From the NCBI GenBank assembly GCA_016176335.1, contig JACOXI010000003.1, positions 6,920 to 70,919 on the forward strand: DNA of 64,000 nucleotides, read 5' to 3'. The DNA is from Candidatus Daviesbacteria bacterium (GTDB lineage Bacteria; Patescibacteriota; Microgenomatia; Daviesbacterales; UBA10151). The stretch's first letter is position 1; each line of letters opens with the position of its first letter. This document shows positions 1,775 through 58,830 of the stretch, in pieces. Below the pieces are notes generated by a model, which saw only the letters and a program-made list of their open reading frames with translations, made no database searches and had not been told where the DNA came from. The position numbers were made by a program, and so were the translations under genes.

Positions 1775-1785
1775 CTAATTAGTAT

Positions 1786-1832
1786 TTCCCGGAGGTTCAC
1801 CTTCCAGGAGTCAAAGCCCACCTGGAAGGTGG
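1786..1832 (+). terminator. Hairpin downstream of the metalloprotease gene (11-bp stem, no clear T-run)
   Basis: 'caccttccagg' pairs with 'cctggaaggtg' across a 12-nt loop. It may be a terminator or a regulatory hairpin. A TTGACA-N17-CATACT promoter-like element follows at 1842-1870. Confidence 0.3.
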
Positions 1833-1877
1833 CAGAAGTTATTGACAGATTGCTAAAAAATCTCCATACTGAGGATA

Positions 1878-3896
1878 GTGAAAAATCTGCTGCTGTTGGT
1901 GGTGACTGTGCTTTTTTTGGGTGCTACTTGGCAGTTTTCTGCCAAAGAAGCTTGTGCTGCTCTGTGGGGAGGAGGATGTAGCCCGCCTGTTGCCTCTGAT
2001 CATCAAACCTGCCCTCTTTCAGGTGTCAGAGACGGAAGATGCGTCAGCTCAGTTGATTTGGTAGCCAACATTAACAGTAGAGGCAGTATGGCTCCCAATA
2101 CCACCATTAGTTTGAGTGTTTGGGATAATGACGGGTCCACTACTACTACTTCTGCCTGCTCTGATGTGTCCTGCCTGATGAGAGCGGACAATGAGTCAAC
2201 TGTTTGGGGAGGGGGAGAAGTAAGTACTTCAATCGCTTTGGATACCATAGGATGCAGTGCAGGAGATTGTGTGGATGCCAACGGCCAAGATTTATTTACG
2301 GTTTCCTTAACTTCCAATGACACAAATTGCACTAATCCCCCCATGCAGACAGTGGATCTATACAGTAGGAACGGACAAACAGTCACCAGAGACTTTACTT
2401 TCATATGTGCAAGGCCCCCGGCTCAAACCTGTACCATTCAAGGCTACAAAGTGATAATGCCGGGCAATCAACCAATTGAACCTGCTGCTTCGCAAACAGT
2501 GACTGTCAGCGGCAAAGGGTCGAGCACTGCTAACCCGTATTCTTTCTCAGACCTCGGTGCAGGAAATTATACTATTTCCACCACCACTCCCACAGGCTAT
2601 ATTCTAAACGGCTATACTCTTTGTACCAATGCCGCCAATTGCCACAACAACACCCCCACTGCCGGAAATTCTGTGACTGCCAACTGCCCTGCAGGCGGAT
2701 ATTTGGATCTCTGGTGGCACTACAGCCCCCAAAACCAGTTTGCAACTGTGGGCGGGCGGGCTACCAACAGCAATACCGGAGCAGGGATAGCGAGCGTGCA
2801 GTTGACTGTTTATAACTCTACTACCCAAACCTACAGATATCCTTTGACCAATTCTAACGGCTATTTCACAGTTACAGACCTTGTCAGGACAGGAGATTAC
2901 TATGCAGTGAGAGCACCCTTAACCACCGGCAGCGGAGGTTTTATTCTTAGTCCGGAGGTAAGTTATGAGAACCAGCGCCAGGGTACCGGGGATTGCGGGA
3001 CAAATTGTAACTTTACCTATAGGCCGGTCTCTGTAGGGGTGGACCTGAAGGCAAATGGATCAGATACTACAGTCAATATTGCCAGCGGAGAAACAGCCAC
3101 ACTGTCTTGGACTACCACCAATGCTTCCTCCTGCACAGCCTCAAGCTCGCCTTCAGACTCTACCTGGAGCGGTACCAAAACAACCGCAAACACCGCCGGA
3201 CAGAGAACCAGCGCTCTGACAGGTCCCAATACCTACACCTACACTCTGCGTTGCAGCAATGCCAGCGGCACTGTCTCCGCCCAAGACTCGGTATCGGTTA
3301 ACGTGGCCGCACCAGTTGCCTGTAACACTTTTTATGTCAGTCCCACTGCCGCAAGCTTAACCATCGGCGGCTCTTCCATGGGAGTTTTTGCCAATGGTCG
3401 TGACGGCACTGTCAGTTGGTCAACTGCCAACTCCTCAATTGCCCGAGTCAGCCCAACCAGCGGCAGCAGCACCCAAATCTCCCCCGGCACCACTTCTGGC
3501 ACCACCACCATCACTGCCACTGACGCAGGCACGGCCAGTTGCAGCGGAGAAACAGGCACTATCTCGGTAACGGTCTCCGCCCCTCTAAGCGGGGCACCTG
3601 TTAACCAACCCATACCGAGTGCTGCTCCAGGCGTAACCACCTATATAATAGAGGGTGTGGTTTTCCTTGACAGCAATAGAAATAGAATCAGAGATGCCAT
3701 AGAGGTCTGTTACCAGGGCCCTGTGCGTATTTCTTTGGGGACTACTTCTATCAATCACCTCCAGGATAGAGATTGCACCAATAAGTACAGGTTTTCCGGG
3801 ATACCTGTAGGGACTTACTCTCTTATTATGGATCCTGTAAATGATTGGGAGTCAACAATGTTGCCGCCGTGGACAGTAATATTTACAGTACCTTAA
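1878..3896 (+). CDS. Secreted Thr/Ser/Gly-rich cell-surface protein with a bacterial Ig-like (Big_2-like) segment
   Basis: The N-terminus is hydrophobic and signal-like. The composition is very Thr/Ser/Asn-rich. A Big_2-like stretch is present ('VSPTSGSSTQISPGTTSGTTTITATDAGTASCSGETGTISVTV'). The exact start is uncertain because the GTG at 1878 sits too close to the 'gaggat' SD-like motif. Confidence 0.5.
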   Translation: MKNLLLLVVTVLFLGATWQFSAKEACAALWGGGCSPPVASDHQTCPLSGVRDGRCVSSVDLVANINSRGSMAPNTTISLSVWDNDGSTTTTSACSDVSCLMRADNESTVWGGGEVSTSIALDTIGCSAGDCVDANGQDLFTVSLTSNDTNCTNPPMQTVDLYSRNGQTVTRDFTFICARPPAQTCTIQGYKVIMPGNQPIEPAASQTVTVSGKGSSTANPYSFSDLGAGNYTISTTTPTGYILNGYTLCTNAANCHNNTPTAGNSVTANCPAGGYLDLWWHYSPQNQFATVGGRATNSNTGAGIASVQLTVYNSTTQTYRYPLTNSNGYFTVTDLVRTGDYYAVRAPLTTGSGGFILSPEVSYENQRQGTGDCGTNCNFTYRPVSVGVDLKANGSDTTVNIASGETATLSWTTTNASSCTASSSPSDSTWSGTKTTANTAGQRTSALTGPNTYTYTLRCSNASGTVSAQDSVSVNVAAPVACNTFYVSPTAASLTIGGSSMGVFANGRDGTVSWSTANSSIARVSPTSGSSTQISPGTTSGTTTITATDAGTASCSGETGTISVTVSAPLSGAPVNQPIPSAAPGVTTYIIEGVVFLDSNRNRIRDAIEVCYQGPVRISLGTTSINHLQDRDCTNKYRFSGIPVGTYSLIMDPVNDWESTMLPPWTVIFTVP

Positions 3897-3899
3897 GAT

Positions 3900-4145
3900 A
3901 TGAAAAAGAAAAAAAGCCAACGCAGGCTACATCCTCTATTTTTGATATTATTTTTTTTGGTAATGGGTCTTTTGCTGCTAATCTTTTTACGAAGAAGTTT
4001 TGTAACAGAGAAGGAGCAGCAAAAGGTCATAGATATCTCTTTACCGATCATTCCCAAAACAGTTGAGTCTGCTCCAGCAAGCGCCAGTAGCGTCCAAGCC
4101 CCTAAGGCAGTGCCGGTTGAACAATCTTTCGGGAGGGAGTTTTAA
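3900..4145 (+). CDS. Small membrane-anchored protein (single N-terminal TM)
   Basis: The sequence is a 'KKKKSQRR' segment followed by a hydrophobic helix. It lies inside the secreted-protein cluster. Confidence 0.3.
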   Translation: MKKKKSQRRLHPLFLILFFLVMGLLLLIFLRRSFVTEKEQQKVIDISLPIIPKTVESAPASASSVQAPKAVPVEQSFGREF

Positions 4146-4148
4146 GAT

Positions 4149-4604
4149 ATGCGGAAAATAACACCATTTTTAAAGGAAAATCTGTTTCTTTTAGTGGTGA
4201 TTTCGGTACTGGTAGCTTTGAGTACAATTTTTATTATTTGGAACAAGACTGTCTTTTTCTCCACCAAAACCGTGACGCCACCTCAAATTCCTCTGGCAAA
4301 CCCACCAATCCAAACACAAAGCCAGCTGCCTTTGACACCTCTACCACCAGCAGCGGAGGCCAACAAGACAGAAGTTTTTTTGGAAAAAGTGCGTGAGGCT
4401 ATATCTGCAGTTGTATTTAGAGGATTGGGAAAGAGTGTTGAGCCAACCCCTACCCCAGGGGTAAGTTCGCAAGGCAGTCCTACGGCAAATGAAGCAGGAA
4501 GCGTTCCCCTGGGCACAAAACCCTCCCAAGACAGTGTAGATACAGCTTCTACAGCAACTGAACCTAAGAGTGCATTTTCACCAAAGCCTGTGAGAATACC
4601 ATGA
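4149..4604 (+). CDS. Membrane-anchored Pro-rich protein
   Basis: It has an N-terminal TM helix followed by a Pro/Thr/Gln-rich extended region. It is translationally coupled to the downstream gene by an ATGA overlap. Confidence 0.3.
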   Translation: MRKITPFLKENLFLLVVISVLVALSTIFIIWNKTVFFSTKTVTPPQIPLANPPIQTQSQLPLTPLPPAAEANKTEVFLEKVREAISAVVFRGLGKSVEPTPTPGVSSQGSPTANEAGSVPLGTKPSQDSVDTASTATEPKSAFSPKPVRIP

Positions 4605-5902
4605 TGATTTCCAAAAAGTTTCTTCCACTATCACTGGCAATTTTCTTTATTTTGTTCCTGTTTGCTTTATTCGCTTTTCCAAAAAGCAGTCCAGCTTATG
4701 CTGCTGCCCAGTGTGACCCATCTTTTGAGAAAAGCTGTGCCGGCGGTTGTATAGGAGCAAATGATATTTGCTGCGGCAGTGGTTATTGCACATTAGGGAA
4801 TCAGTGCGCCACTATTAACGGCAGGGCAGGTTGTATTCCTACCGGTTCGTCTGTCTGCGGCAACGGTTATTGTGAGCAGGGTTTAAACTGTGTCAGCACT
4901 ACCGCCGGATATCGCTGTGTGGAACCAGGCAGACAGCAATGCGGCAGCGGAAACTATTTTTGTTATGCAGGTAACACTTGTGTTAATGCCAGCATACCTC
5001 TTTGTTGTGGAAGTGGTCAGGTTCAATGCGGAACCGGTTGTGTACCGTCAGGGGTAAGCTGTTGTAATTTGCCTGGGACAAGTTACTATTGCCCTACCCC
5101 AGGTGATGTCTGCACAAATACCAATAATACTGTTGCCGGACTTTCTTGCATACCGCCAGGTTGGACTTCTTGCGGAGGAGGTTATGCTTGCCCGCTTAAC
5201 ACCTCTTGCAGTGGAAGTGGAAACACTGCTACTTGCTACGGATCTTTGGTTTTTCCTGTGCCCGGCAATGGTGAGATGCTTGACCAGCGGCAAGTTGTGT
5301 TTGATGCTGTGTTTGCGGAATCAGCGGACAGCCGTGCTACTGGCCAGACTTTTACACCCGCAGTTACCGGTTATCTAAAAAGAATAGTATTTGCTGTATG
5401 GGACATAAGCGGAAATCCTTCTGGTTTAGGGATACAAATAGTTAAAATCCAAGGTAGCTCATGGATAGGAACAGCAGAGGTGATTTCCAGGGAAATAGTA
5501 AAGAATGTAAGTCAATACAGCTTTGTTCAAGCAGAGTTTGCTGAAGGAGAGAGGCCGTTTTTACAGGCCGGAGGTTATTATGCAGTGGTAATCCGCAGTA
5601 CAGGAGGCAGTGGTTATTACAACTTAGCTATGTACGGCCCACATGCTTCTTCCCAGGGATATACCCGCGGAGACCTTTGTGGGTTTAATCTTAGTGGCAG
5701 CACTCCGACCCAAATTGCGCCTAGCTCTTGCTACGTTGGCGAGTATTTCCAGGTCCGTGATTTGGCCTTTTCAACTTATATGCTCCCTTCAAGAGAAACT
5801 GACTTAGGAGTCGCACCGCCTCCTGCTTTAGACCCCTGGATTCAGACCACCGGCGGGGATGTTCATTCCAATACCGGAATAAATACCCCGGGAGGACCAT
5901 GA
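4601..5902 (+). CDS. Secreted cysteine-rich repeat protein (novel CGxGxxC repeat modules plus a C-terminal globular domain)
   Basis: It has a signal peptide. About 170 aa then carry repeated 'CGSG..C..G..C(V/A)' modules with more than 40 Cys. I recognise no known family. Confidence 0.45.
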   Translation: MMISKKFLPLSLAIFFILFLFALFAFPKSSPAYAAAQCDPSFEKSCAGGCIGANDICCGSGYCTLGNQCATINGRAGCIPTGSSVCGNGYCEQGLNCVSTTAGYRCVEPGRQQCGSGNYFCYAGNTCVNASIPLCCGSGQVQCGTGCVPSGVSCCNLPGTSYYCPTPGDVCTNTNNTVAGLSCIPPGWTSCGGGYACPLNTSCSGSGNTATCYGSLVFPVPGNGEMLDQRQVVFDAVFAESADSRATGQTFTPAVTGYLKRIVFAVWDISGNPSGLGIQIVKIQGSSWIGTAEVISREIVKNVSQYSFVQAEFAEGERPFLQAGGYYAVVIRSTGGSGYYNLAMYGPHASSQGYTRGDLCGFNLSGSTPTQIAPSSCYVGEYFQVRDLAFSTYMLPSRETDLGVAPPPALDPWIQTTGGDVHSNTGINTPGGP

Positions 5903-6705
5903 GAGAATTTAGAATTAAGGTTTTTTTAAATTGCTTTTTATTAGCTTTATTCTTGATTCTTGTCGCTTTATTCTACCATCCTACTTTTGCCCAAACCTCA
6001 ACATGTGGTGGTGGAACCGGGGACCGGGCCACTGGGCTGGTCTCTACTCCCCAACTTATGTCTGGTTCTAAATTTGGTACCACAACAGGAGCTTGTATAA
6101 TTGACCCCAAAACAGCTTTTGTCCCCTTTAAAATCCCAAGCTATGAAGATTTAAAATCACTTTATTATACCCAATCCAAAGCTACTAAAATAGATGCTAC
6201 ACCTGCCTCTGGTACGGCTAATCAAGGTACCATCAGATCTGCTTTGAACAGTTCTGATATCATACTGATCAGAGGAGATCTGAACCTCAACGGTAACTTG
6301 GGAGGAAGCCCAAAAACCGCTGTCATTTTGGTTGAAGGTAACCTGAATTTTGGAGGTAGCAATTTTACATTCGGTGATAACAACACGGGTGTTGTCTTTG
6401 TAGTAAGCGGTAATGTTAATATTGACCCAACGGTTACTCAAATAGATGCAATTATTATTGCCGGCGGAATAATTTGTACAGCTTCTGGCGGTTCTGTTTG
6501 TCCAACTGCTAATGTCCCGAACTCACAACCACTTGTGATTAATGGCAGCTTAATATCTTTAAATGAGTTAGCCTCTATTAAATTCAGGCGTTCGCTCGCT
6601 GATAATAGACGGCCAGCTGAAAAAATCAATCATCAAATCAAATATCTGGTAATTTTAAGAGATCTTTTGTCCGATACTTATCAAAAATGGTCAGAAATAC
6701 CCTAA
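5899..6705 (+). CDS. Secreted hypothetical protein with beta-strand repeat (GNLN/GNVN) segment
   Basis: It has a signal peptide. It carries repeats 'GDLNLNGNLGG...VEGNLNFGGSNFTFGDNNTGVVFVVSGNVNIDP' suggestive of a beta-helix or solenoid. Confidence 0.35.
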   Translation: MREFRIKVFLNCFLLALFLILVALFYHPTFAQTSTCGGGTGDRATGLVSTPQLMSGSKFGTTTGACIIDPKTAFVPFKIPSYEDLKSLYYTQSKATKIDATPASGTANQGTIRSALNSSDIILIRGDLNLNGNLGGSPKTAVILVEGNLNFGGSNFTFGDNNTGVVFVVSGNVNIDPTVTQIDAIIIAGGIICTASGGSVCPTANVPNSQPLVINGSLISLNELASIKFRRSLADNRRPAEKINHQIKYLVILRDLLSDTYQKWSEIP

Positions 6706-6739
6706 AGAGTCATCAGCTATCAGACGTCAGTCGTCAGAC

Positions 6740-7129
6740 ATGAATACACATAAATTTAGAAAACTGAAAGTTTGGCAAAGATCAATTCAATTTGTAACTT
6801 TAATCTATAAAATTACTACTAAGTTTCCGAAAGAAGAAAAATATGGACTAGTAGATCAAATAAGAAGGGCTGCTGTGAGTATTTGTCTAAATATTGCCGA
6901 AGGCTCGGGATCAGGCTCTGATGCAGAATTTGTTAGGTTCTTAAGAATAGCACAGCGATCAGCTTATGAAGTAATTGCTGCATTAGAAATTACAATTAAT
7001 CTTAAAATGACGAACAAATCGGCATTAGATGGTGCTATAGTGGAGGTAGACCAGTTAAGCGCCATGCTTACTGGACTTATTAAAAGTCTGAAAGCTGACA
7101 GGTCCGATGTTAAATCGGACCGATACTGA
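6740..7129 (+). CDS. Four-helix-bundle protein (TIGR02436, '23S rRNA intervening sequence protein' family)
   Basis: 'KLKVWQRSIQFVTLIYKITTKFPKEEKYGLVDQIRRAAVSICLNIAEGSG...' is characteristic of this family. The ORF is flanked by inverted GTCAGTCGTCAG motifs. Confidence 0.75.
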   Translation: MNTHKFRKLKVWQRSIQFVTLIYKITTKFPKEEKYGLVDQIRRAAVSICLNIAEGSGSGSDAEFVRFLRIAQRSAYEVIAALEITINLKMTNKSALDGAIVEVDQLSAMLTGLIKSLKADRSDVKSDRY

Positions 7130-7145
7130 CGACTGAAGACTATTT

Positions 7146-8111
7146 ATGAAAAAAGGCTTCACCCTAATAGAGCTGCTTGTTGCTGTTTCGATTTTAGCAA
7201 TACTATCCACTATTGGTATTACTGCCTTCCAGGGAACTCAATCCAAGGCAAGAGATACTGTCAGAAAAAATGACCTGAATGTCCTGGCCACAGCTTTGGA
7301 GATATATCGTGAGCAAAATGGAAAATATATTGTTAACAGTGACGGAACAAATATTACCACCTGCCCTTCCTCATCTGACACCACTTCTCCATTTTATACA
7401 CAAATTGCAGCTAATTTATCCACCCCTGCCCCAAAAGACCCTAAAACAGGATCTTTCTACTGTTACATTTCAGTTAGCAATGGTCAATCCTTCAGGCTTT
7501 TTGCCGGGCTGGAAAATTGTAGTGGTTCAGGCGGTAATTTATGTGAATATACTAACTACAACTATACTGTTATTTCAGAAGATATAAGCTTAGCTTCTGC
7601 CCCGTCAGATTCGCTGATTGCAAGCGCACCAACTCCTACTCCTTCCCCTTCCCCAACTCCCACAGCCACAACTTCTCCCTCTCCTTCAGCCTCTCCCACA
7701 GCTTCCCCTTCCCCTTCCCCAACTCCTACTCCTACAGCTACCTATACCTATATTCAAACCAACGTGGGTTGTAGTACTCCTTTGGGTTTGACTCCTGACC
7801 AACTCTGCCAAAGAGAGGTTTCTTCTACCTCTCGCTCCCAAGCAGTGCCTGGCAGCAGTACCATAATGGCCAAGGGTTACTGGTGGCAAGAATGCGGCGG
7901 GGCTTCGGTAAGTGACTGTGTAGGGCTGGATTGCACAGTCAATCAGCTTGATTGTACCAATACTCCAGGGTTTTGGGGTACACAAATACCTTATCCCTCT
8001 CATTACCTAAAAACAGGTAATAACATCACAGTCTTTGATCCTGATTCTCTTGGTTGGAGTTGCGATGGTTTTAGTCCCGGTTGGACTATGAGGGTGTATT
8101 GCTCCCGTTAA
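7146..8111 (+). CDS. Type IV pilin-like protein (prepilin N-terminal methylation motif) with PT-rich linker and Cys-rich C-terminal domain
   Basis: 'MKKGFTLIELLVAVSILAILSTIGITAFQG' is a class III signal with a conserved Glu5. A long (P/T/S)n linker follows, then a C-terminal domain with about 9 Cys. Confidence 0.75.
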   Translation: MKKGFTLIELLVAVSILAILSTIGITAFQGTQSKARDTVRKNDLNVLATALEIYREQNGKYIVNSDGTNITTCPSSSDTTSPFYTQIAANLSTPAPKDPKTGSFYCYISVSNGQSFRLFAGLENCSGSGGNLCEYTNYNYTVISEDISLASAPSDSLIASAPTPTPSPSPTPTATTSPSPSASPTASPSPSPTPTPTATYTYIQTNVGCSTPLGLTPDQLCQREVSSTSRSQAVPGSSTIMAKGYWWQECGGASVSDCVGLDCTVNQLDCTNTPGFWGTQIPYPSHYLKTGNNITVFDPDSLGWSCDGFSPGWTMRVYCSR

Positions 8112-8136
8112 AGCTATTGATACTGAAGACTGACAA

Positions 8137-8847
8137 CTATTTCCCAAAATTGCGCTTTTGATTCTGATACCAAACAACGGCCTTTTTAAATTCATTCTCA
8201 TCAAAATCCGGCCATAGGGTTTTGGTAAAATAAAACTCGCTGTAGGCTGTTTGCCAAAGTAAAAAATTGGAAAGTCTACTTCTGCCTCCGGTTCTAATCA
8301 AAAGCTCCGGATCTCTCTGTCCATTGGTATATAAATGCCTTTCCACTATCTCCTCATTAATCTTTTTAACTTCAATCCCCTTTTTAACAATCTCTTTGAT
8401 AGCGGAAAGCAGTTCTTTTTTACCTCCATAATTTAAAGCTATATTTAATTTGATGGACTCATTTTTAAGATATGCCTTTCTAATTCTATCGATAATTTTT
8501 ATAATAGTTTGGGGCAAGCCTTGCACCTCACCTAAAATTGTCACCCTGACTCCTTTTTTTATCATCTTCTTTAATCTGCTGTGATAACCTTTTCGGAATA
8601 GATTGAACAATCCCAGTACCTCTCTTTTGGCCCTTTCCTTAATATTCTCTGTTGATAGCGCATAAACTGTAATGGTTTTAACTCCTAATTTTTCTGATTC
8701 ATCAACAATTTTTTCCAACACTTCTGCTCCTTTCTCATGACCTTTCATGTCAGACAGACCCTTGGATCTGGCCCACCGTCTGTTACCATCCATGATTATT
8801 GCTATGTGACTTGGTATGTTTTTAGTACTTAAGTTTTTTTTATCCAT
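8137..8847 (-). CDS. uppS: Undecaprenyl diphosphate synthase (isoprenyl transferase)
   Basis: 'IAIIMDGNRRWA' is the UPP synthase hallmark. The length fits. Confidence 0.9.
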   Translation of the reverse strand: MDKKNLSTKNIPSHIAIIMDGNRRWARSKGLSDMKGHEKGAEVLEKIVDESEKLGVKTITVYALSTENIKERAKREVLGLFNLFRKGYHSRLKKMIKKGVRVTILGEVQGLPQTIIKIIDRIRKAYLKNESIKLNIALNYGGKKELLSAIKEIVKKGIEVKKINEEIVERHLYTNGQRDPELLIRTGGRSRLSNFLLWQTAYSEFYFTKTLWPDFDENEFKKAVVWYQNQKRNFGK

Positions 8848-8921
8848 GTTTCAAATAGATTTATGATTTATGAGATATGAGTTATGATTAAATTCATAAA
8901 TCTTAAATCATTGTTCATAAA

Positions 8922-9830
8922 TCACTTTTCCCTTTCCACCATATATTGCACCATTTCCGAAAATAACTTTCTCATTTTGGCATCAGAAGTAATCTTTGGT
9001 ATTACTCTTTTTGCTCTAAAAGCATATTTTAACGCTTTGGCCTCTGCCTTGTCCACTGATTCTACTTCCCCATCCAAAATATCATCTCTAATCTGAAAAG
9101 CAATCCCTGCATTCTCCCCGAATTCTTTTATCCCGCGAAGCCTTGGCGAAGTGGGACCTGCTCCTGCCAGAATTGCTCCGAGTTTAAGAGGGCCTGAAAT
9201 AGTATATCTGGCTGTTTTAAGTTTAGCTGTAAGCTTCGGGTCAGCATGGGCAACATCAAGCATTTGTCCTATGGCAGTATCCAGCATTGTTTGGGAAAAA
9301 AATCTTAAGGCCTGGTTTTTTAATTTATCTTCAAAGTTGCTTTCAGTAATAATTTTTATTGCCAGAAAAAAGCCTGCATCTGCCAAAGTGATGGCCTGCT
9401 CCACTCCTACGCGCTTATACAAGGAGGGCTGACCACGTCTTTTGGGACTTTGATCAATTATGTCGTCATGGGCCAAAATGGCAGCATGAAATATCTCATA
9501 AGCTGCAGCAATTTTAATAATAGAGCTTTCAGCTGTCAGTATCGCTTCGCCCGCCTTTGGCGTGGCTTCGCTGTCAGCTTTCAGACTTTTTTTGTCTTTG
9601 TCTGATTGCTGATAGCTGATAGCTGATGACTCTTTTGCAATCTCATATCCCAACACCACCAAAGTTCCCCTGATTCTCTTGCCTCCCTTGCAGGCTTTGA
9701 TGAATTTGTCAACCAAAGGCAATAGACTTCCGGAAGTCTTGCCAACCCCATTCCTCCATTCTTTTAACAATCTCTTTAACTCTTTATCAATGTGTTCAAC
9801 TGTTTTTTGACTAAATATCTTAAAATCCAT
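8922..9830 (-). CDS. Polyprenyl (geranylgeranyl/farnesyl) diphosphate synthase; carries an in-frame repeat insertion
   Basis: The first Asp-rich motif is 'AHDDIIDQSPKRRG'. A ~95-bp repeat-derived insert encodes 'SYQQSDKDKKSLKADSEATPKAGEA'. Confidence 0.85.
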   Translation of the reverse strand: MDFKIFSQKTVEHIDKELKRLLKEWRNGVGKTSGSLLPLVDKFIKACKGGKRIRGTLVVLGYEIAKESSAISYQQSDKDKKSLKADSEATPKAGEAILTAESSIIKIAAAYEIFHAAILAHDDIIDQSPKRRGQPSLYKRVGVEQAITLADAGFFLAIKIITESNFEDKLKNQALRFFSQTMLDTAIGQMLDVAHADPKLTAKLKTARYTISGPLKLGAILAGAGPTSPRLRGIKEFGENAGIAFQIRDDILDGEVESVDKAEAKALKYAFRAKRVIPKITSDAKMRKLFSEMVQYMVEREK

Positions 9831-12063: not shown

Positions 12064-13233
12064 ATGGTAGAATTGCCTTTCATGAAAAGCAAACTTTCTC
12101 TTCGCGACTTTCCTTCCGCTCAAAAAAGACGCCAGTTTTTAGAAAAAGAGTTAAAACTAGACTTGGACAGTCTTGGTAGTTTCACTTTTTCAGAGGAAGA
12201 AGTCACCGGTAGAAATATAGAAAATCTAATTGGAGCAACACATATTCCTTTGGGTATCGCTGGTCCACTCAAAATCATAAATCATAAATCATCAATCATA
12301 AATCACTTTATACCATTGGCCACTACCGAAGGAGCATTGGTAGCTTCTTTATCCCGCGGCTGCAAGGCCATCACAGAAAGTGGCGGGACAGAAGTTTTGG
12401 TGGAAAATATCGGTATCACCCGCGGCCCGGTATTTAGGACTGAAAGCTTGCAGCATGGACAACAAATCAAAAAGTGGGTGGAGCAAAACTTCACCAAGTT
12501 GGCCAAGGTATCAAAAAGTACTTCTTCCCATCTGAAATTACTGAAAGTAGAACCAGCCATGGTGGGACGTAATTTGTGGCTTCGTTTCTATTTTGATACT
12601 GAAGATGCCATGGGCATGAATATGGCAACAATTGCCACAGATGAGGCAGTGAAACTAATTGAAAAGGAAACAAAAGCTAAGTGTATATCTTTGGCAGGAA
12701 ATTATGACATTGACAAAAAGCCCTCTTGGCTGAATTTCATTTCCGGGCGGGGTAAAAAGGTCTGGGCAGAAGCTGTCTTACCCAAAAAAGTGGTCAGGGA
12801 AGTGCTTAAAACTACGCCGGAAAAGATGGCCGAGGTAGTCTATAGAAAATGCTTGCTGGGTTCAGCAGTCAGCGGTTCATTGGGCTTTAATGCTCATTTT
12901 GCCAATATACTCTCCGCCATCTTTCTGGCCACCGGCCAAGATCCCGCTCATGTGGTGGAAGGCAGTTTGGGAGTGACCACTGCCGAGGTTATGCCCAATG
13001 GCAACTTATATTTCTCCGTCTATCTGCCATCTTTGGTGGTGGGAGTAGTTGGCGGAGGAACACATCTGCCTACCCAAAAAAAAGCCTTAGAAATTATGCA
13101 GGTGAACAATGTGCTAGAATATACTCGGGCTGTGGGAGCAGCTGTTATTTCTGGTGAAATTTCATTAATTGCCTCTCTTTCGGAAGGAAGTTTGGCAAAA
13201 GCACACCGGAAACTGGGTAGAAAAGGAAAATAG
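12064..13233 (+). CDS. hmgA: Hydroxymethylglutaryl-CoA reductase (class I, archaeal/eukaryotic type)
   Basis: 'ENLIGATHIPLGIAGPLKI...TTEGALVASLSRGCKAI' matches. The track ORF starts at 11992 inside the upstream gene, and an in-frame ATG at 12064 is the more likely start. It contains an in-frame 'atcataa' tandem repeat that encodes 'IINHKSSIINH'. Confidence 0.85.
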   Translation: MVELPFMKSKLSLRDFPSAQKRRQFLEKELKLDLDSLGSFTFSEEEVTGRNIENLIGATHIPLGIAGPLKIINHKSSIINHFIPLATTEGALVASLSRGCKAITESGGTEVLVENIGITRGPVFRTESLQHGQQIKKWVEQNFTKLAKVSKSTSSHLKLLKVEPAMVGRNLWLRFYFDTEDAMGMNMATIATDEAVKLIEKETKAKCISLAGNYDIDKKPSWLNFISGRGKKVWAEAVLPKKVVREVLKTTPEKMAEVVYRKCLLGSAVSGSLGFNAHFANILSAIFLATGQDPAHVVEGSLGVTTAEVMPNGNLYFSVYLPSLVVGVVGGGTHLPTQKKALEIMQVNNVLEYTRAVGAAVISGEISLIASLSEGSLAKAHRKLGRKGK

Positions 13234-13383
13234 GAGCGAAGTCACAAGTAATCAAAAAATGTAGTGCAGTTGAGCGCACCACTTATTCAATGTTTCGAAA
13301 CCAGAATCTGGCGCGAAACAAACACCAAGTGAGCGATCCGGTCGCGCGAACGGTTTTTTGTACTGTGACGAGCGACAAACATT
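13234..13383 (+). repeat. ~145-bp dispersed repeat element, copy 1 (fills the hmgA / HMG-CoA synthase intergenic region)
   Basis: It is near-identical to 26611..26759 and 57806..57960. It shares 'agcgaagtca...caaaaaatgt.gtgcagttgagc...ggcgcgaaac...gcgagcgacctggtcgcgcgagcggttttttg...tgacgagc'. Confidence 0.8.
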
Positions 13384-31708: not shown

Positions 31709-31738
31709 CTTTTTTGGTGCCGCCGGACTTTTTAACCA
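31693..31738 (+). repeat. 46-bp direct repeat, left copy, flanking the BrnTA cassette
   Basis: It is 45/46 identical to 32331..32376, which encodes the Fic C-terminus. Confidence 0.8.
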
Positions 31739-33403: not shown

Positions 33404-33485
33404 GATTATAGCTATCAGTCTTCAGCTATCAGCTTTCAGACTGTACCTAAAAATGTCTGACGACTGACGACTGAAAGCCGACGAC
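33404..33485 (+). repeat. Palindromic 'CAGCTATCAG...GTCTGACGACTGACGACTGA' element (copy A)
   Basis: It matches copies at 42343..42422 and 56706..56785. Confidence 0.7.
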
Positions 33486-33521
33486 TACTTCAATTTTCGC
33501 ATATTTCCCGCAAAATTCCAA

Positions 33522-36500
33522 CTAAGGAATGACATATTCATCCCAACTTTTGATCTGTAAATCTGCTATTTTTTTGGAAGACAAACTTGATACTAATAAT
33601 TCTGCAGCTTGAAGATTGGTGATAAGCGGAATTCCCAAATCAATACAATGCCTTCTTATCACAAATCCATCCGTTTCTCCTTTGGAAGATCCTCCCACGG
33701 AGATATTGATGGCAAGATCAATATGACCTGCTTTCAGTAAGTCCAAAACCGACGGATGTTTTTTCTCTGAAATTTTGTAAACTCTTATACTACTTATTCT
33801 ATGCTGTTTTAAAAACTGATGTGTGTGTTCTGTGGCATAAATTTTAAATCCTAAACCGAAGAGCAGTTTGGCAGATTCCAGAAAATCCAGCTTATTTTTC
33901 TCTCCCCCAAGTCCCAAAAATACACTTTTCTTTGGCATTTTAAAGCCGGTTGCCAGCAGTGCTTTAAGATAGCCTTCCTCTAAGTCATCACCAAAACAGG
34001 CCACCTCACCGGTTGAGGACATCTCTACTCTTAACCTGGGATCTGCTCCTTTTATTCTGTTAAAAGAAAATTGAGGAGCCTTAACTGCTACATAATCCAA
34101 ATCTATAGTTTTAAAATCTCCCTGAATGTCCTCTCCAAGCATGACTTTTGTTGCCATCTCCACCAAGTTGTAACCGGTAACTTTGGAGACAAACGGGAAG
34201 GACCTCGAGGCTCTTAAATTAAGCTCGATCACTTTAATCTCATTATCTTTGGCTATAAATTGAATGTTGAACGGACCACAAATCTTAAGTTCTCTTAGAA
34301 TCTTTTTTGTAGCCTCTTTGATCTGTCTGACAGTTTCAAGGTAGAGTTTTTGCGGAGGCAAAACCAGCGTTGCATCACCGGAGTGAACCCCGGCATTTTC
34401 AACATGCTCTGATATGGCATAAATTAAAAGATTCCCGTTTACTCCTACTCCGTCAATTTCAATCTCTTTGGCGCCCTCCACAAATTTGGAGATAACAACA
34501 GGATGCTCACTTAAAATATCCGCTGCCTGTTTTAGATATTTTTTAAGCTCAGAAGAAGAGTAAGCAACATTCATGGCAGAGCCTGACAAAACATATGAGG
34601 GTCTGATCAAAACAGGGTAGCCAATTTTTCTTGCAAACTCTAGAGCATCACCCAAACTTTTAAGACTCATCCAGGCAGGTTGTTCAATGTTTAACTTATC
34701 CAAAATTTTGGAGAATTTATGCCTATCTTCTGCTCTGTCTATAGAAATAGGTGAGGTGCCGATAATTTTGTAGCCTGCTTTGTAACATTTTAAAGCTAGG
34801 TTGTTTGGAACTTGTCCACCAAAGCCCAAAACTAAACTGCCTTTTTCAATATCATAAATATCGGACACTCTCTCGAAAGTTAATTCTTCAAAGTATAATT
34901 TATCGGCCAAATCATAATCTGTGGAAACAGTTTCCGGGTTACAATTTATGATGATTGTTTCCAAACCTCTCTGCCTTAAGGTTTGTGCAGCGGTAACGCA
35001 GCACCAATCAAACTCCACTGACGAACCAATACTGTATGGTCCGGAACCTAAAACAATCGCTTGGTCCTTGAGTAGCTTAGGTGACTTAAGTGACTTAATA
35101 TTTGCCTCTGACTCTTCACCATGATAGGTCAAATATAAATAATTGGTCTTTGCCGGAAATTCTGCTGCCAAAGTATCTATGTGCTTGACCTTTGGGATAA
35201 TGCCATGTTTTTTTCTAAATTTCCTGACCTGTTCTTCTGTTGTGTTAAAAGCTTTTGCAATCACTCTATCTGAAAAACCCAGCTTCTTTGCTTTTGCAAT
35301 CGTCTGATTGCTCGCCTCGCTGAAGCTCTGGCGAAGCGGGCTGAAAGCTGAAGGCTGAAGGCTATCTTCAAACTCCGCCATCTCTTTAATTTGATGCAAA
35401 AACCAGGGATCAATGCCTGTTTCCTGATAAATTTTCTCGACACCCTCTCCTTTTGAAAACTCTTTGGCAATTGAGAAAAGTCTTTGTGATGTGGGAAGGA
35501 GTGTGCTACTATCAACTCCGTTTGATAAGCCGTCTTGCCCTATCTCCAGCATTCTAATAGCTTTTTGCAAGGCCTCCGGAAAAGACCTGCCTATTGCCAT
35601 GACCTCCCCCACACTTTTCATCTCCGATCCGATAGCCTCATACGCCCCCACAAATTTTTGTAAATCCCATCTGGGAATTTTAACCACAATATAATCCAAA
35701 GCAGGCTCAAAAAAAGCAGAAGTTGATAGGGTGATCCTGTTTTTTAAGTTGGGTAAGTTGTAACCCAAAGCTATTTTGGCAGCGATATATGCTAAAGGGT
35801 AACCAGTTGCTTTTGAGGCTAAAGCCGATGAGCGGGATAGCCTGGCATTAACTTCAATTACCCGGTAATCATTATTTCGGGGATTTAGGGCAAATTGAAT
35901 ATTACACTCCCCCAAGATCCCCAAATGCTCAATAACCTGCAAAGACAGTCTTCTTAAGAAGTGGTACTGATAATTGTTTAAGGTTTGTGATGGTGCAACA
36001 ACTATACTTTCACCGGTGTGAACCCCCATTGGATCCAAGTTCTCCATATTACAAACAGTAATCTTGTTTCCATTGTTATCTCGGACAACCTCATATTCAA
36101 TCTCTTTCCAGTGTTTTAAATACTCTTCAACAGTAATTTGGGGGACATGTTTTAAGGTGATTGACACCATTTTTACTAAATCTTCCTTATTACTCACCAC
36201 CCCTGATCCCAAACCTCCCAAGGAAAAACCTGATCTGACAAGAAGGGGGAACCCCAAATTTTCAGCAATTTCTTCTGCTTCTTTGACGGTTTTTGCAAAT
36301 CCACCTTTTGGAACTTTAACAGCAATTTTTGAAAGTGCTTTTGCAAACAATTCCCTATCTTCGGTTACTTCAATACTTCTAATCGGTGTTCCTAAAACTT
36401 TTACACCGTATTTTTTAAATATATCTTTTTTATCTAAAGCAAGGCCGCAATTTAAAGCAGTCTGTCCCCCGAATGAAAGGAAAATTCCATCAGGTTTTTC

Positions 36501-36722
36501 TTTTTCAATGACCTTTGTCACAAAATATGGAGTAACAGGCAGAAAGTAGATTTTATTGGCTAGACTTTTAGAAGTTTGGATGGTGGCAATATTAGGGTTG
36601 ATTAGTACAGCCTCCACACTCTCTTCTTTTAAAGCTTTTAAAGCTTGTGAACCGGAGTAATCAAATTCTCCGGCCTCACCGATTTTTAATGCCCCAGAGC
36701 CCAAAATAAGAATCTTTTTCAT
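33522..36722 (-). CDS. carB: Carbamoyl-phosphate synthase large subunit; carries an in-frame repeat insert
   Basis: It is 1066 aa with duplicated ATP-grasp halves and an MGS-like C-terminus. The insert 'SLQPSAFSPLRQSFSEASNQ' lies at 35308-35370. Confidence 0.95.
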   Translation of the reverse strand: MKKILILGSGALKIGEAGEFDYSGSQALKALKEESVEAVLINPNIATIQTSKSLANKIYFLPVTPYFVTKVIEKEKPDGIFLSFGGQTALNCGLALDKKDIFKKYGVKVLGTPIRSIEVTEDRELFAKALSKIAVKVPKGGFAKTVKEAEEIAENLGFPLLVRSGFSLGGLGSGVVSNKEDLVKMVSITLKHVPQITVEEYLKHWKEIEYEVVRDNNGNKITVCNMENLDPMGVHTGESIVVAPSQTLNNYQYHFLRRLSLQVIEHLGILGECNIQFALNPRNNDYRVIEVNARLSRSSALASKATGYPLAYIAAKIALGYNLPNLKNRITLSTSAFFEPALDYIVVKIPRWDLQKFVGAYEAIGSEMKSVGEVMAIGRSFPEALQKAIRMLEIGQDGLSNGVDSSTLLPTSQRLFSIAKEFSKGEGVEKIYQETGIDPWFLHQIKEMAEFEDSLQPSAFSPLRQSFSEASNQTIAKAKKLGFSDRVIAKAFNTTEEQVRKFRKKHGIIPKVKHIDTLAAEFPAKTNYLYLTYHGEESEANIKSLKSPKLLKDQAIVLGSGPYSIGSSVEFDWCCVTAAQTLRQRGLETIIINCNPETVSTDYDLADKLYFEELTFERVSDIYDIEKGSLVLGFGGQVPNNLALKCYKAGYKIIGTSPISIDRAEDRHKFSKILDKLNIEQPAWMSLKSLGDALEFARKIGYPVLIRPSYVLSGSAMNVAYSSSELKKYLKQAADILSEHPVVISKFVEGAKEIEIDGVGVNGNLLIYAISEHVENAGVHSGDATLVLPPQKLYLETVRQIKEATKKILRELKICGPFNIQFIAKDNEIKVIELNLRASRSFPFVSKVTGYNLVEMATKVMLGEDIQGDFKTIDLDYVAVKAPQFSFNRIKGADPRLRVEMSSTGEVACFGDDLEEGYLKALLATGFKMPKKSVFLGLGGEKNKLDFLESAKLLFGLGFKIYATEHTHQFLKQHRISSIRVYKISEKKHPSVLDLLKAGHIDLAINISVGGSSKGETDGFVIRRHCIDLGIPLITNLQAAELLVSSLSSKKIADLQIKSWDEYVIP

Positions 36723-42288: not shown

Positions 42289-42346
42289 TAAAAAAGCCCT
42301 TGCAAGTTCCCAAAGATTAACTTTAGAAACTTACAAGGGCCTTATT
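42289..42346 (-). terminator. Terminator/attenuator-like hairpin immediately upstream of argH RBS (minus strand)
   Basis: On the minus strand 'aaggcccuuguaaguu' pairs with 'aacuugcaagggcuu' and is followed by 'uuuuuuaa'. It lies between the leader region and the argH SD. Confidence 0.45.
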
Positions 42347-42422
42347 TCAGCTTTCAGACTTCAGCTATCAGCTTTCAGACTTTTGTAATTGTCTGATGAC
42401 TGACGCCTGACGACTGATGACT
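42343..42422 (+). repeat. Palindromic CAGCTATCAG/GACTGA element (copy B) in the argH leader
   Basis: The sequence is 'cagctttcagacttcagctatcagctttcagactt...gtctgatgactgacgcctgacgactgatgact'. Confidence 0.7.
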
Positions 42423-42457
42423 AATCAAGACGGTGCCACCTTGCTTAAATTTTGCTA

Positions 42458-56532: not shown

Positions 56533-58830
56533 TCATAACACTAATAACTTCATCTCTCCCCAATTGGGGCCTACTTTTAGATCCACCACTACTGGTACAG
56601 ATAATTTTAGGGCATTTTCCATTTTATCTTTGACCATTTGGGCAATTTCTTTAACGCTCTTGGGGTCACACTCAAACAACAATTCATCATGAACCTGGAG
56701 GATGAGTCGGCAGCTATCAGATCGTTCGCTGCGCTCACTGTCAGCTTTCAGACTGTCTGACGACTGATGACTGATGACTGATAACTCCTTATCAATTTCC
56801 ACCATGGCCTTTTTGATCATATCTGCTGCTGTTCCTTGAACCGGATGATTGATGGCTGCTCTCTCACCAGCTGCTTTGATGGCGTGATTTGAGGCTGTAA
56901 GTTCAGGGATATATCTTTTCCTGCCCCAAAGAGTTTCAACATACCCCCTTTCATATCCAAAGGCTAAAGTCTTTTGCATCCACTGGGAAACTTTGGGGAA
57001 TTGTGCAAAATATTCCGCAATATATGTTCGCGCCACCTCATATTCCACCCCTAACTGACGGGACAAGGCATGGGGGCCCTGACCATATAACGTTGCAAAG
57101 TTCATGGTTTTACCTACATTTCTTTGCTGTTTTGTAATTTTATCAATTGGCATTTTGAAAATTTTACTGGCAGTTGCTACATGAATGTCTAATCCTTCTC
57201 TGAAGGACTTTCTTAATCCCGGATCATCTGCCAAATGAGCCATAATCCTAAGCTCGATTTGTGAATAATCAGCTGCCAAAAGTACCTTGCCTTTGGGAGC
57301 AATGAAGGCGCGTCTTATTTCTCCACCCTCCTCACCTTTAATTGGGATATTTTGCATGTTTGGGTTTTGAGAAGACAGCCTGCCTGTGGCAGCTCCTTCC
57401 ACATTAAAAGTGGAGTGAATCCTGCCATCTAATCCTACAGATTTAGGCAAGGCATCTATGTAGGTTGATACCAGTTTGAAAAGCTGGCGATACTCTAAAA
57501 GTAATGGCACTACAGGATGAGCTGCTACCAACTCATGAAGGGTGGCCTCATCTGTTGATCTACCAGTTTTGGTCTTTCTCACCACTGGTAATTTAAGTTC
57601 GTCAAACAGAATCTGCGACAGTTGCTTTGGGCTGTTCGGATTAAACTCATGTCCTATTTTTGAGTAAATTTCTTTTTCTAATTTAATTAATCTACCTTTT
57701 AAGGCTTTCCCAAGTCTCTCTAAAAACCTTAAATCTATTAGTACACCAGTTTTGGACATCCTTTCTAAAACTGGCTGTACAGCTAAATCCAAATCCGTGG
57801 TATTTATGGAGTTAGCGAAGTCAGAGGTAGCCAAAAAATGTGGCGCAGTTGAGCGCACATCCTTATCCATGCTTGAATTACCTACTTGGCGCGAAACAAG
57901 TCCCAAGCGAGCGACCTGGTCGCGCGAGCGGTTTTTTGCATCCTGACGAGCTACTCCCACACCTGGAATCCTACCAATCAAACTTTTAAACTCCAATTCT
58001 TCAAACAATTTAACTACTTTTTCTTTATCAAAATCATGAACCTCACACTTCTTCAAATCTAACTTAATTGGGGCTTTGCCATCTAAGGTGGCTAGTTTTT
58101 TACTCATTACAGCATCTTCTGCACCTTCTGCCAACAGCTTTTGCATTCTTTGCGGTAAAGTTTTTAAATTCTTGGGACGGTAAATTTCTTCAATCGTGCC
58201 AAACTGGTGTATTAATTTTGTCGCAGATACATCCCCTATTCCAGAAACTCCCGGGATATTATCCGATGCATCTCCTGCCAGCGCCTTATAATCAACCAAA
58301 AGTTTGGGTGCAAATCCATATCTTGCCACAAACTCTTCCTCCCCATACAGCCCCACATCCGCAAGGGTTTTTTTAGGCATAAAAACTTTCACTTTTCCAT
58401 TAATCAGCTGCATGATATCCCGATCACCTGTCACAATAATAATTTCTAATTTCAAATTTTTAATTTTTAATGCTTGGCTTGCCAGTGTGGCAATCAGATC
58501 ATCTGCCTCATAACCTGATAAGCTAAATTGCGGCATGTTAAATGCCCTGATGACCTCATGCACTCTGTGATATTGATTACCCAATGCCTGATCCAGCTCA
58601 CGTCTTGTGGCTTTATATTGAGTATAAGCTTGATGTCTAAATGTCGGCCCCCTTTCATCCCAGGCAACGGCCAGAAATGTAGGTTTAAGCTCATTTAAAA
58701 CCTTCAGCATCATTGAGGAAAATCCATATACAGCATTGACCAGTTCTCCTTGGGAAGTAGTAAAAGGAGGAGTAGCATGATAAGCCCGATGCAGCAAAGC
58801 ATTACCATCAACTAAAACCAGTCGTTTCAT
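56533..58830 (-). CDS. polA: DNA polymerase I (5'-3' exonuclease + polymerase domains; no evident 3'-5' exonuclease domain); carries two in-frame repeat inserts
   Basis: The N-terminal 5' nuclease is 'MKRLVLVDGNALLHRAYHA'. The Pol A motifs 'DYSQIELRI' and 'QVHDELLFE' are present. Inserts lie at 57806-57960 (the 145-bp element) and 56706-56785. Confidence 0.9.
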   Translation of the reverse strand: MKRLVLVDGNALLHRAYHATPPFTTSQGELVNAVYGFSSMMLKVLNELKPTFLAVAWDERGPTFRHQAYTQYKATRRELDQALGNQYHRVHEVIRAFNMPQFSLSGYEADDLIATLASQALKIKNLKLEIIIVTGDRDIMQLINGKVKVFMPKKTLADVGLYGEEEFVARYGFAPKLLVDYKALAGDASDNIPGVSGIGDVSATKLIHQFGTIEEIYRPKNLKTLPQRMQKLLAEGAEDAVMSKKLATLDGKAPIKLDLKKCEVHDFDKEKVVKLFEELEFKSLIGRIPGVGVARQDAKNRSRDQVARLGLVSRQVGNSSMDKDVRSTAPHFLATSDFANSINTTDLDLAVQPVLERMSKTGVLIDLRFLERLGKALKGRLIKLEKEIYSKIGHEFNPNSPKQLSQILFDELKLPVVRKTKTGRSTDEATLHELVAAHPVVPLLLEYRQLFKLVSTYIDALPKSVGLDGRIHSTFNVEGAATGRLSSQNPNMQNIPIKGEEGGEIRRAFIAPKGKVLLAADYSQIELRIMAHLADDPGLRKSFREGLDIHVATASKIFKMPIDKITKQQRNVGKTMNFATLYGQGPHALSRQLGVEYEVARTYIAEYFAQFPKVSQWMQKTLAFGYERGYVETLWGRKRYIPELTASNHAIKAAGERAAINHPVQGTAADMIKKAMVEIDKELSVISHQSSDSLKADSERSERSDSCRLILQVHDELLFECDPKSVKEIAQMVKDKMENALKLSVPVVVDLKVGPNWGEMKLLVL
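56706..56785 (+). repeat. Palindromic CAGCTATCAG/GACTGA element (copy C) in-frame inside polA
   Basis: The sequence is 'cagctatcag...ctgtcagctttcagactgtctgacgactgatgactgatgactga'. It encodes 'SVISHQSSDSLKADSERSERSDS'. Confidence 0.7.
57806..57960 (+). repeat. ~145-bp dispersed repeat element, copy 3, in-frame inside polA (antisense to the gene)
   Basis: It aligns over its full length with the 13234..13383 and 26611..26759 copies. It is translated as 'ARQDAKNRSRDQVARLGLVSRQVGNSSMDKDVRSTAPHFLATSDFANSINT'. Confidence 0.8.

Follow-up and report, generated by a model that had tools for sequence, protein, structure and literature searches.

Our data indicate that positions 6703-7145 of the 64-kb window analysed here, a stretch of a Candidatus Daviesbacteria genome from the Microgenomates, are most probably (we put this at roughly 60%) a selfish cassette of the type known from 23S rRNA intervening sequences (IVSs), residing in an mRNA operon, transcribed by read-through, with end arrays that would pair in the RNA and a transcript that is probably processed. 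The cassette carries a gene for a four-helix-bundle (4HB) protein between two arrays of degenerate 7-nt repeats and, as a preliminary description of this DNA had stated, lies directly upstream of a pilin gene. Coordinates are positions of the 64-kb window and refer to the plus strand unless stated, and labels such as L001 denote retrieved genome loci that were compared with it. The locus is built as follows, the feature after the pilin gene being a separate array.

6703..6739, plus strand: left insertion end, consisting of TAA (6703-6705, the new stop codon of the upstream pilus-operon gene for a 268-aa protein), AGAG and the heptamer array.
6713-6737, plus strand: run of four TCAG at 7-nt spacing within the left array TCATCAG CTATCAG ACGTCAG TCGTCAG AC, which adjoins the 4HB start codon.
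6740..7129, plus strand: 4HB open reading frame (ORF), 129 aa, PF05635/TIGR02436, isoelectric point (pI) 9.7.
7087..7100, plus strand: inner downstream heptamers GTCTGAAAGCTGAC, the reverse complement of the GTCAGCTTTCAGAC type.
7101..7121, plus strand: nested mini-hairpin GGTCCGAT-GTTAA-ATCGGACC within the repeat region, unique in the window.
7122..7145, plus strand: right insertion end GATACTGACGACTGAAGACTATTT, running directly to the pilin ATG; together with 7087-7100 it puts TGA in all three frames.
7146..8111, plus strand: type IV pilin-like gene, N_methyl/GspG-like, a resident gene of the operon.
8119..8149, plus strand: third array copy GATACTGAAGACTGACAACTATTT..., in the 25-nt spacer of the convergent pilin and uppS genes, inverted relative to 6726-6737.

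The strongest evidence that the segment is an insertion comes from relatives in which the site is empty. The orthologues of the 268-aa gene (window 5899..6705) in L115, L116 and L117 encode a protein with the C-terminus ...WSEIP, and an ATGA unites their stop codon with the start codon of the pilin gene; in L118 the genes overlap in the same order, but the upstream protein has a divergent C-terminus. The window junction reads ...WSEIP-TAA-AGAG-(TCAG array)-ATG...4HB...(CTGA array)-CTATTT-ATG-pilin, and about 443 nt (6703-7145) are missing from the orthologous junction in L115 and L117. By alignment of these junctions, the cassette is evidently an insertion of about 443 nt placed exactly in the translationally coupled ATGA junction of the 268-aa and pilin genes, and it appears to supply the stop codon of the upstream gene and to leave the pilin ATG directly behind the 3' array. 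L087 shows the same arrangement as the window, and L084, L085 and L086 have neither a 4HB nor a pilin gene at this junction. A comparison of syntenic regions had been proposed in the preliminary description, and its outcome is an empty site in relatives exactly at the position of the cassette; the idea that the 4HB gene forms a cassette bounded by palindromic-repeat arms is borne out by this and by the recurrence of the same ends in other gene contexts, described below. The companion idea, that the motifs bracket the 4HB and pilin genes together, holds for the 4HB gene only: the pilin is resident and lies outside the cassette, and the third motif copy is a separate array between pilin and uppS. 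The pilin as a passenger of the cassette was accordingly rejected as a candidate, since relatives have the pilin joined to the 268-aa gene. No array was found at the pilin/uppS junction of L117 and L118. Accessory DNA seems to settle repeatedly in this convergent junction, which in L115 (4072-4549) is occupied by a HicAB toxin-antitoxin pair.

Near-identical cassettes, with proteins 80-88% identical, are present in at least five other gene contexts in Daviesbacteria, among them the following.

L001: Wzy_C, 4HB, 86-aa gene.
L002: argS, 4HB, metallophosphatase.
L105: 4HB, smpB.
L090-L099 and L101-L103: convergent junction of uppS and the 268-aa gene, with the cassette in the opposite orientation.

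These cassettes share their ends, starting with (A)ATAG-(TCAGNNN)3-4-AC-ATG and finishing with GTCTGA-(NNNCTGA)n-CTATT(T)-ATG, and the 13 non-coding bases TCAGTCGTCAGAC before the ATG are identical in L001, L002, L087 and L090, that is, in every copy found independently. The 4HB proteins of the window and L087 are 88% identical, compared with 56% for the flanking 268-aa protein and 48% for the pilin. The ratio of non-synonymous to synonymous substitution (dN/dS) of the 4HB gene, window against other Daviesbacteria copies, is 0.03-0.10 at a dS of 0.7-2.9, which indicates that the 4HB protein is functional; the arrays are more conserved than synonymous sites, and by these substitution patterns both the protein and the arrays are under purifying selection. 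Array copy number nevertheless varies between near-identical strains, altering the array-encoded C-terminus (...SLIAEKV compared with ...SLKAEKSDS). A scan of metagenomes with the DNA pattern returned only 8 loci, most of which had already been seen. A strict nested model, in which a cassette of one arm type would sit inside a solo element of another, was dropped because spacer types are mixed in L001, L002 and L090.

Within the window the repeat is a degenerate 7-nt tandem, (TCAGNNN)n 5' of the 4HB ORF and (CTGANNN)n at and 3' of its stop. The motif GTCAGTCGTCAG, allowing at most 2 mismatches, has 14 matches in the window where 1.38 are expected, and 0 of 100 shuffles reach 14; TCAG and CTGA form 8 and 9 runs at 7-nt spacing, where about 0.7 are expected. 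A repeat search of the window pairs 6722-6737 with 7126-7141 as inverted arms (16 nt, 88% complementary) and 6726-6737 with 8123-8134 (12 nt, 92% complementary), and 7122-7152 recurs in direct orientation at 8119-8149 (31 nt, 81%). The arrays before the 4HB and pilin genes, intergenic tandems of at least two 7-nt units, end 0 nt and 4 nt 5' of the respective ATG. All four strings quoted in the preliminary description are present in the window, with coordinates that were off by 1-7 nt: the upstream string tcagctatcagacgtcagtcgtcagac lies at 6713-6739 rather than 6712-6739; the downstream string actgacgactgaagac, inverted relative to the upstream copy, at 7125-7140 rather than 7118-7136; the perfect hairpin ggtccgatgttaaatcggacc of 8 bp with a 5-nt loop, which does fall inside the ORF (end 7129), at 7101-7121 rather than 7107-7127; and the third string actgaagactgacaac, which does follow the pilin gene, at 8122-8137 rather than 8119-8140. 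The hairpin is restricted to the lineage of the window, as L087 keeps the stem with a t>c change in the loop and the other cassette copies compared (L001 and L002) are without it. Because 7 leaves a remainder of 1 on division by 3, three successive CTGANNN units close all three reading frames, and TGA does occur in all three frames within 7089-7136. The in-frame one (7127-7129) is the stop codon of the 4HB gene and belongs to a CTGA heptamer, and the last ~14 residues of the 4HB protein (KSLKADRSDVKSDRY) are encoded by the downstream repeat region.

The 4HB protein matches PF05635 over profile positions 1-106 of 106 (E 1.1e-36, 125.7 bits, cutoff 33.8) and TIGR02436 at 125.4 bits (cutoff 24), and by sequence comparison it matches the structures 2GSC (E 1e-18) and 2RLD (E 4e-5), both deposited with five chains. 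A scan of the whole window against Rfam at the gathering threshold and a tRNA scan gave no match and no rRNA, so the arrays are not a curated RNA family, and no promoter or terminator was predicted near the cassette in a scan of 5800-8900. The cassette has inverted terminal repeats able to pair and enclose the ORF: in the predicted fold of 6700-7150 (minimum free energy -110.6 kcal/mol, z = -2.7), positions 6703-6740 pair with 7087-7147 around the whole ORF, with the heptamers at 7087-7100 opposite 6726-6739 and the mini-hairpin at 7101-7121 as a side branch.

A terminal stem, an ORF in the loop, a similar length and sense orientation are all features of the Coxiella IVS, which measures 428-444 nt and is cut by RNase III (PMC4990558), and this match is why we rate an IVS-type cassette as the most likely explanation. 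The preliminary description had drawn the analogy with rRNA intervening sequences, and it has held up well, given the same protein family, inverted ends, an insertion of 443 nt and 7-nt arms in a true IVS (below). With the ORF-bearing 23S IVSs of Leptospira, Coxiella, Brucella, Xanthomonas and Azospirillum the window element shares the PF05635 'S23p' protein family, terminal inverted repeats around an ORF in the sense orientation of the host transcript, a sporadic distribution and short ORF-less relatives, besides size (443 nt compared with 428-444 nt in Coxiella; PMC4990558) and, in the case of Azospirillum, 7-nt periodic arms. It differs in lying between protein genes in a stop/start overlap with no rRNA gene, in a more interrupted stem, and in a 4HB ORF that is strongly constrained by purifying selection, in contrast to the reported decay of the Coxiella ORF. 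In the mechanism that we propose, a promoter-less, functional 4HB gene with inverted arrays, (TCAGNNN)n at its 5' end and (CTGANNN)n at its 3' end, would have landed in the overlapping ATGA junction of the 268-aa and pilin genes and would be transcribed by read-through from the host operon. In the transcript the two arrays would then pair into a long, interrupted stem with the ORF in its loop; structures built in this way are cut out of 23S rRNA precursors by RNase III, and by analogy this transcript may be processed as well. ORF-less relatives would have reached gene boundaries and also, without breaking the reading frame, the interior of coding genes; the basic and probably pentameric 4HB protein may act on the heptamer arrays, and the cassette would have moved without a transposase.

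The association of 4HB genes with heptamer arrays extends far beyond Daviesbacteria. A scan of species-representative genomes gave 80 PF05635 loci, to which L001 and L002 were added and from which two duplicates were removed for the analysis set of 81; the loci span Chloroflexota, Omnitrophota, Actinomycetota, Gammaproteobacteria, Acidobacteriota, Nitrospirota, Planctomycetota, Bacteroidota, Patescibacteria and others. On inspection, tandem heptamers stand 5' of the ATG, usually with their reverse complement 3' of the stop, and the unit depends on the lineage (TCAGCTN, CAGANNN, AGTTCGG, TAGTCCA and others). An array was counted where a 4-mer occurred at least 3 times at 7-nt spacing within 73 nt upstream of the ATG or around the stop, a rule that replaced an initial periodicity threshold (18/21 matches) too strict for arrays of 2-4 units. 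By this rule 7-nt arrays were found upstream in 29/81 loci, around the stop in 32/81, at either end in 45/81 and at both ends in 16/81, compared with 0-2 loci for spacings of 5, 6, 8, 9 or 10 nt and with 2.2% of control windows more than 400 nt away. The fairer control is provided by other genes of the same loci, where arrays occur at 11/115 starts and 8/109 stops (odds ratios 5.3 and 8.2; p = 1e-5 and 8e-8); the frequency of 7-nt arrays is thus four to five times higher at 4HB genes than at neighbouring genes. In the downstream flank the reverse complement of the upstream core exceeds the direct form in 40 loci, against 6 with the opposite preference, and the duplex between a locus's own upstream and downstream flanks has a mean of -32.7 kcal/mol compared with -22.8 for cross-locus and -21.4 for shuffled pairs (p = 4e-10). 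The neighbours are on the same strand upstream in 71/78 loci and downstream in 61/74, at median gaps of ~48 and ~22 nt; co-orientation and short gaps suggest a promoter-less, operon-embedded gene. The inspection of the flanks of other 4HB genes that the preliminary description had recommended therefore shows 7-nt arrays recurring in many phyla and in a true 23S IVS. Two 4HB paralogues per locus are found in L014, L015 and L020, and the repeat units of the paired genes differ in L014 and L020. In L014, from Candidatus Kuenenia, the second paralogue (37-330) is followed by an array of 8-nt period, (CTCCTTAA)n, instead of a 7-nt one, and the second copy in L015 has no clear array around it.

Cultured cyanobacteria carry the same layout. 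Nostoc punctiforme and Trichormus variabilis have (TCAGRAN)n 5' of the gene and (TTCTGAN)n 3' of it, Geminocystis and Picosynechococcus have inverted arrays as well, and Pseudanabaena has long direct (AAAAGCT)12 arrays; its presence on complete plasmids of cultured organisms rules out an artefact of metagenome assembly. In two of these, the array-flanked 4HB gene sits inside a CRISPR-cas operon: between cas6 and cas4 in L108 (Pseudanabaena galeata plasmid pPg_01, 392-751), and between cas10/cmr2 and cmr3 in L111 (plasmid of Picosynechococcus PCC 7003, 401-757). Large surveys list '23S rRNA IVP' as a CRISPR-linked gene (PMC10910872), and 4HB cassettes in cas operons may explain that linkage. 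On a replicon of Azospirillum lipoferum 4B (L114) a 4HB match at 2501-2725 falls within the large-subunit rRNA at 1283-4481 and marks a genuine 23S IVS. Its inverted arms, TCAGAGGACGGATGACAGAGGACGGAGGACAGAAAGG and CCGTCCTCTGTCTTCTGTCATCCGTCTTCTGA, have an identity of 0.59 and 0.70 at a lag of 7 nt compared with 0.08-0.43 at other lags. The heptamer architecture extends to the classical IVS, in this one example.

The arrays also occur without a 4HB gene. Five further sites in the window, two intergenic and three in frame inside intact essential genes, carry the same arrays, which gives at least 6 sites in the 64 kb.

33405..33490, plus strand: solo copy, (TCAGNNN)4-CAGAC, 14-nt loop, GTCTGA-(CGACTGA)n, between carB and a Fic gene.
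42340..42426, plus strand: solo copy, 11-nt loop, intergenic, upstream of a lyase gene.
9529..9635, plus strand: solo copy, in frame in the polyprenyl synthetase gene (8922..9830, minus strand).
35290..35365, plus strand: array element, in frame in carB (33522..36722, minus strand), in the oligomerisation domain.
56700..56790, plus strand: solo copy, 2-nt loop, in frame in polA (56533..58830, minus strand), in the polymerase domain.

The copy in the polyprenyl synthetase gene, the one in-gene copy compared with orthologues, adds ~30 residues that the orthologues do not have. All three in-gene elements fall within Pfam domains. The intergenic solo form is a hairpin, (TCAGNNN)n-CAGAC, a short loop and GTCTGA-(NNNCTGA)n, and since the 4HB locus has the same inner boundary as the solo elements, ...TCAGAC / GTCTGA..., the 4HB ORF sits where the loop of a solo element is. 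The solo elements are best read, by analogy with short ORF-less rRNA IVSs, as ORF-less relatives of the cassette. The preliminary description had held that finding the motif away from 4HB genes would count against its reading, and this is partly the case: with solo sites present, some of them inside coding genes, the arrays are enriched at 4HB genes and not exclusive to them.

Several observations weigh against reading the cassette in this way. Sense and antisense duplexes of the flanks are equally stable and their G-U content is likewise no different, so the duplexes give no evidence of selection at the level of RNA over that of an inverted repeat in DNA. The stem in the window is interrupted, with helices of 4-6 bp separated by bulges of 1-3 nt, which would make it a non-canonical substrate for RNase III. 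Heptamer arrays are found at 7-10% of other gene boundaries in the surveyed loci and only 10/56 distal arrays share their core with the local 4HB arrays, suggesting that arrays may be a wider phenomenon into which 4HB genes settle; several unrelated heptamer families in the window, moreover, are without a 4HB gene. Arrays are direct rather than inverted in a minority of loci (L028, L057 and L108), and ~44% of loci have none by the strict criterion. The comparison of filled and empty sites revealed no clear target-site duplication, and no recombinase or transposase was found among the window genes scanned. Finally, the empty site is known from distant orthologues (44-66% protein identity), and the choice of insertion over loss therefore rests on parsimony.

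Much of this would also be accommodated if the arrays were a general post-transcriptional or translational signal at gene boundaries and the 4HB protein a trans-acting, autoregulated binder or regulator encoded by a non-mobile cassette, a view that we consider unlikely. Autoregulation would then account for the strongest sites lying at the 4HB gene itself, and the arrays would not be the ends of a transposon. It draws on the arrays immediately before the pilin and 4HB start codons, which have no Shine-Dalgarno sequence, on the arrays at other gene boundaries and at the solo sites, on the conservation of arrays above that of synonymous sites, and on the basic character (pI 9.7) of the 4HB protein together with its homology to 2GSC (five chains, a reported homopentamer) and to Avd of diversity-generating retroelements (DGRs); MacGregor (2015, PMC4679880) described the same placement for TAACTGA repeats and asked for an unknown binding protein. 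What a boundary signal leaves unexplained is the precise insertion polymorphism, the recurrence of gene and ends in five contexts that are unrelated and, at one junction, in either orientation, the in-frame copies in polA, carB and the polyprenyl synthetase gene, and the inverted relation of the two arrays; in addition, the window contains several heptamer families other than the one beside its only observed 4HB gene. As for mere chance or base composition, which would make the repeats meaningless CTGA/TCAG-rich strings in an AT-rich genome, single copies are indeed short (12-16 nt) and degenerate. That explanation is refuted by the motif and spacing statistics, as the matches in the window far exceed expectation with no shuffle reaching their number and the signal is restricted to 7-nt spacing, and the ends are conserved across independent genomes and the pattern is repeated in the 81 loci and in complete isolate genomes.

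The position of the third array raises the question of whether the 4HB and pilin genes together form an invertible segment that flips between 6726-6737 and 8123-8134 and acts as a phase switch for the pilin. Phase variation is classically associated with pilin genes, the outer copies form inverted 12-nt arms with 92% complementarity, and the 4HB gene does occur in the opposite orientation at the uppS/268-aa junction of other Daviesbacteria. We nonetheless regard such a switch as very improbable: the orientations differ between separate species (UppS 77% identical) rather than among members of one population, gene order is the same at all eight places listed for the P0012 genome, no invertase or recombinase gene lies nearby, at 12-16 nt the repeats are short to serve site-specific inversion, and relatives that have no arrays carry the pilin as a resident gene. 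Even less credible is a role of the 4HB protein as the Avd of a DGR that diversifies the C-terminal domain of the pilin, although PF05635 is the Avd superfamily, weak matches to bAvd and NF033474 exist, the pilin has an unusual Cys-rich C-terminal domain and DGRs are said to be common in bacteria of the candidate phyla radiation (CPR). The two models stay far below their cutoffs (NF033474 23.7 against 80; bAvd 21 against 40), no template/variable repeat pair involves the pilin and no long repeat is present at the locus, which led us to reject the identity with DGR Avd; no reverse transcriptase is encoded among the neighbouring genes scanned with Pfam, a scan that left out most other ORFs of the window, and the same cassette stands beside unrelated genes elsewhere. 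What the 4HB protein shares with Avd is thus the superfamily and a basic character, and it differs in the missing retroelement components. Avd and the related XCC0516 are reported to be pentameric, and Avd is reported to bind nucleic acid.

The IVS-type cassette combines features of several repeat systems that have been described separately. Already known are IVSs with an S23p/4HB ORF and terminal inverted repeats, and heptamer repeats (PMC4679880): TAACTGA repeats occur in Beggiatoaceae, Cyanobacteria and Bacteroidetes, and which protein binds or carries them was left as a question (MacGregor 2015, PMC4679880). The TAACTGA repeats (PMC4679880) and the short tandemly repeated repetitive (STRR) sequences have in common with the window arrays tandems of 2-6 copies of a 7-nt unit with a CTGA core, a location immediately 5' of start codons without a Shine-Dalgarno sequence and sometimes inside ORFs, and a patchy cross-phylum distribution suggesting horizontal spread. 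The window units CGACTGA, TGACTGA and AAGCTGA have the CTGA core of TAACTGA, and one TAACT unit is found at 56779-56785. The STRR sequences of cyanobacteria are heptanucleotide tandem repeats that, like the TAACTGA repeats, have been catalogued without a mechanism. The TAACTGA repeats are described as mostly direct and are not linked there to 4HB genes (PMC4679880), whereas the window arrays are inverted pairs around a 4HB ORF or a short loop, and their heptamer varies with the lineage. With Rickettsia palindromic elements (RPEs), repetitive extragenic palindromes (REPs) and miniature inverted-repeat transposable elements the window elements share short dispersed palindromic repeats in multiple copies with common inverted ends, and with RPEs also in-frame copies in essential protein genes that are evidently tolerated. 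Such in-frame palindromic elements are known from Rickettsia, where RPEs insert in frame into protein genes. The window elements differ from all three in being built of 7-nt tandem units instead of a unique palindrome, in having no REP-associated tyrosine transposase (RAYT) or other transposase partner among the genes scanned, and in that one version has a non-transposase ORF in the loop. We found no paper linking 4HB genes to heptamer repeats in a literature search that did not cover most subscription journals, so a prior description is possible; in the same search, with the same limit, IVS-type cassettes in mRNA operons were not found described, and the TAACTGA paper (PMC4679880) does not mention 4HB proteins.

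Other repeats and features of the window deserve a brief record. Two further heptamer families are present: AAATCAT/ATGATTT at 8846-8928, 12271-12316, 27114-27152 and 54492-54529, partly as inverted pairs at gene boundaries, with one array directly upstream of the uppS start and no 4HB gene linked to the family in the window, and TTGATTC/GAATCAA at 5944-5981, 16622-16671, 30026-30076, 37354-37390 and 44025-44113, with one copy in the 5' part of the 268-aa gene. A second dispersed repeat of ~150 nt (13231-13376, 26617-26760 and 57810-57954) has the layout AGCGAAGTCACAAG...GTGCAGTTGAGCGCAC...GGCGCGAAAC...AGCGAGCGACCTGGTCGCGCGAGCG-TTTTTTG...TGACGAGC and no Rfam match; its third copy lies inside the polA ORF (56533..58830, minus strand). 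Near the 3' ends of two genes, 31692-31738 and 32330-32376 form a 47-nt direct repeat, CTTTAACACATAAAT.GCTTTTTTGGTGCCGCCGGACTTTTTAACCA, 98% identical and 638 nt apart, and beside one solo hairpin ~630 nt (42289-42920) contain no ORF of at least 90 aa, no Rfam family and no tRNA. The polyprenyl synthetase orthologue of L085 (4992-5852) has two other peptide inserts that share an HLGGV... motif and lie in loops that in the window protein either hold the array insert or are free of inserts, which suggests that the L085 genome carries a different in-frame repeat element. The pilin gene (7146-8111) encodes a Pro/Thr/Ser-rich linker of imperfect 12-30-nt repeats (7629-7739) and a Cys-rich C-terminal domain, and its homologues retain mainly the N-terminal half.

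Taken across the survey, 4HB genes and heptamer repeats are physically coupled in many phyla, a coupling that reaches, in one example, to classical rRNA IVSs, and the cassette behaves as an insertion in operons. We tentatively extend this to the proposal that PF05635 pentamers read 7-nt units, and that gene and cognate inverted arrays form an autonomous element from which heptamer repeats have spread through bacteria. Each protomer of a basic pentameric ring would engage one 7-nt unit, and a selfish element without a transposase would seed arrays (STRR, TAACTGA and similar ones) at gene boundaries, inside coding genes and, as IVSs, in 23S rRNA. PF05635/TIGR02436 proteins are annotated in very many bacterial genomes, and to our knowledge no function is known for them apart from Avd. 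If true, the proposal would account both for the cross-phylum spread of heptamer repeats and for the function of a very large orphan protein family. For annotation, the arrays matter because they extend or interrupt coding sequences, create the C-terminal tails of 4HB proteins and sit in frame in genes such as polA and carB of CPR genomes. Two descriptive puzzles thereby become experimental questions, namely whether 4HB proteins bind 7-nt arrays and whether RNase III processes them, and culturable carriers exist in Nostoc, Trichormus and Picosynechococcus.

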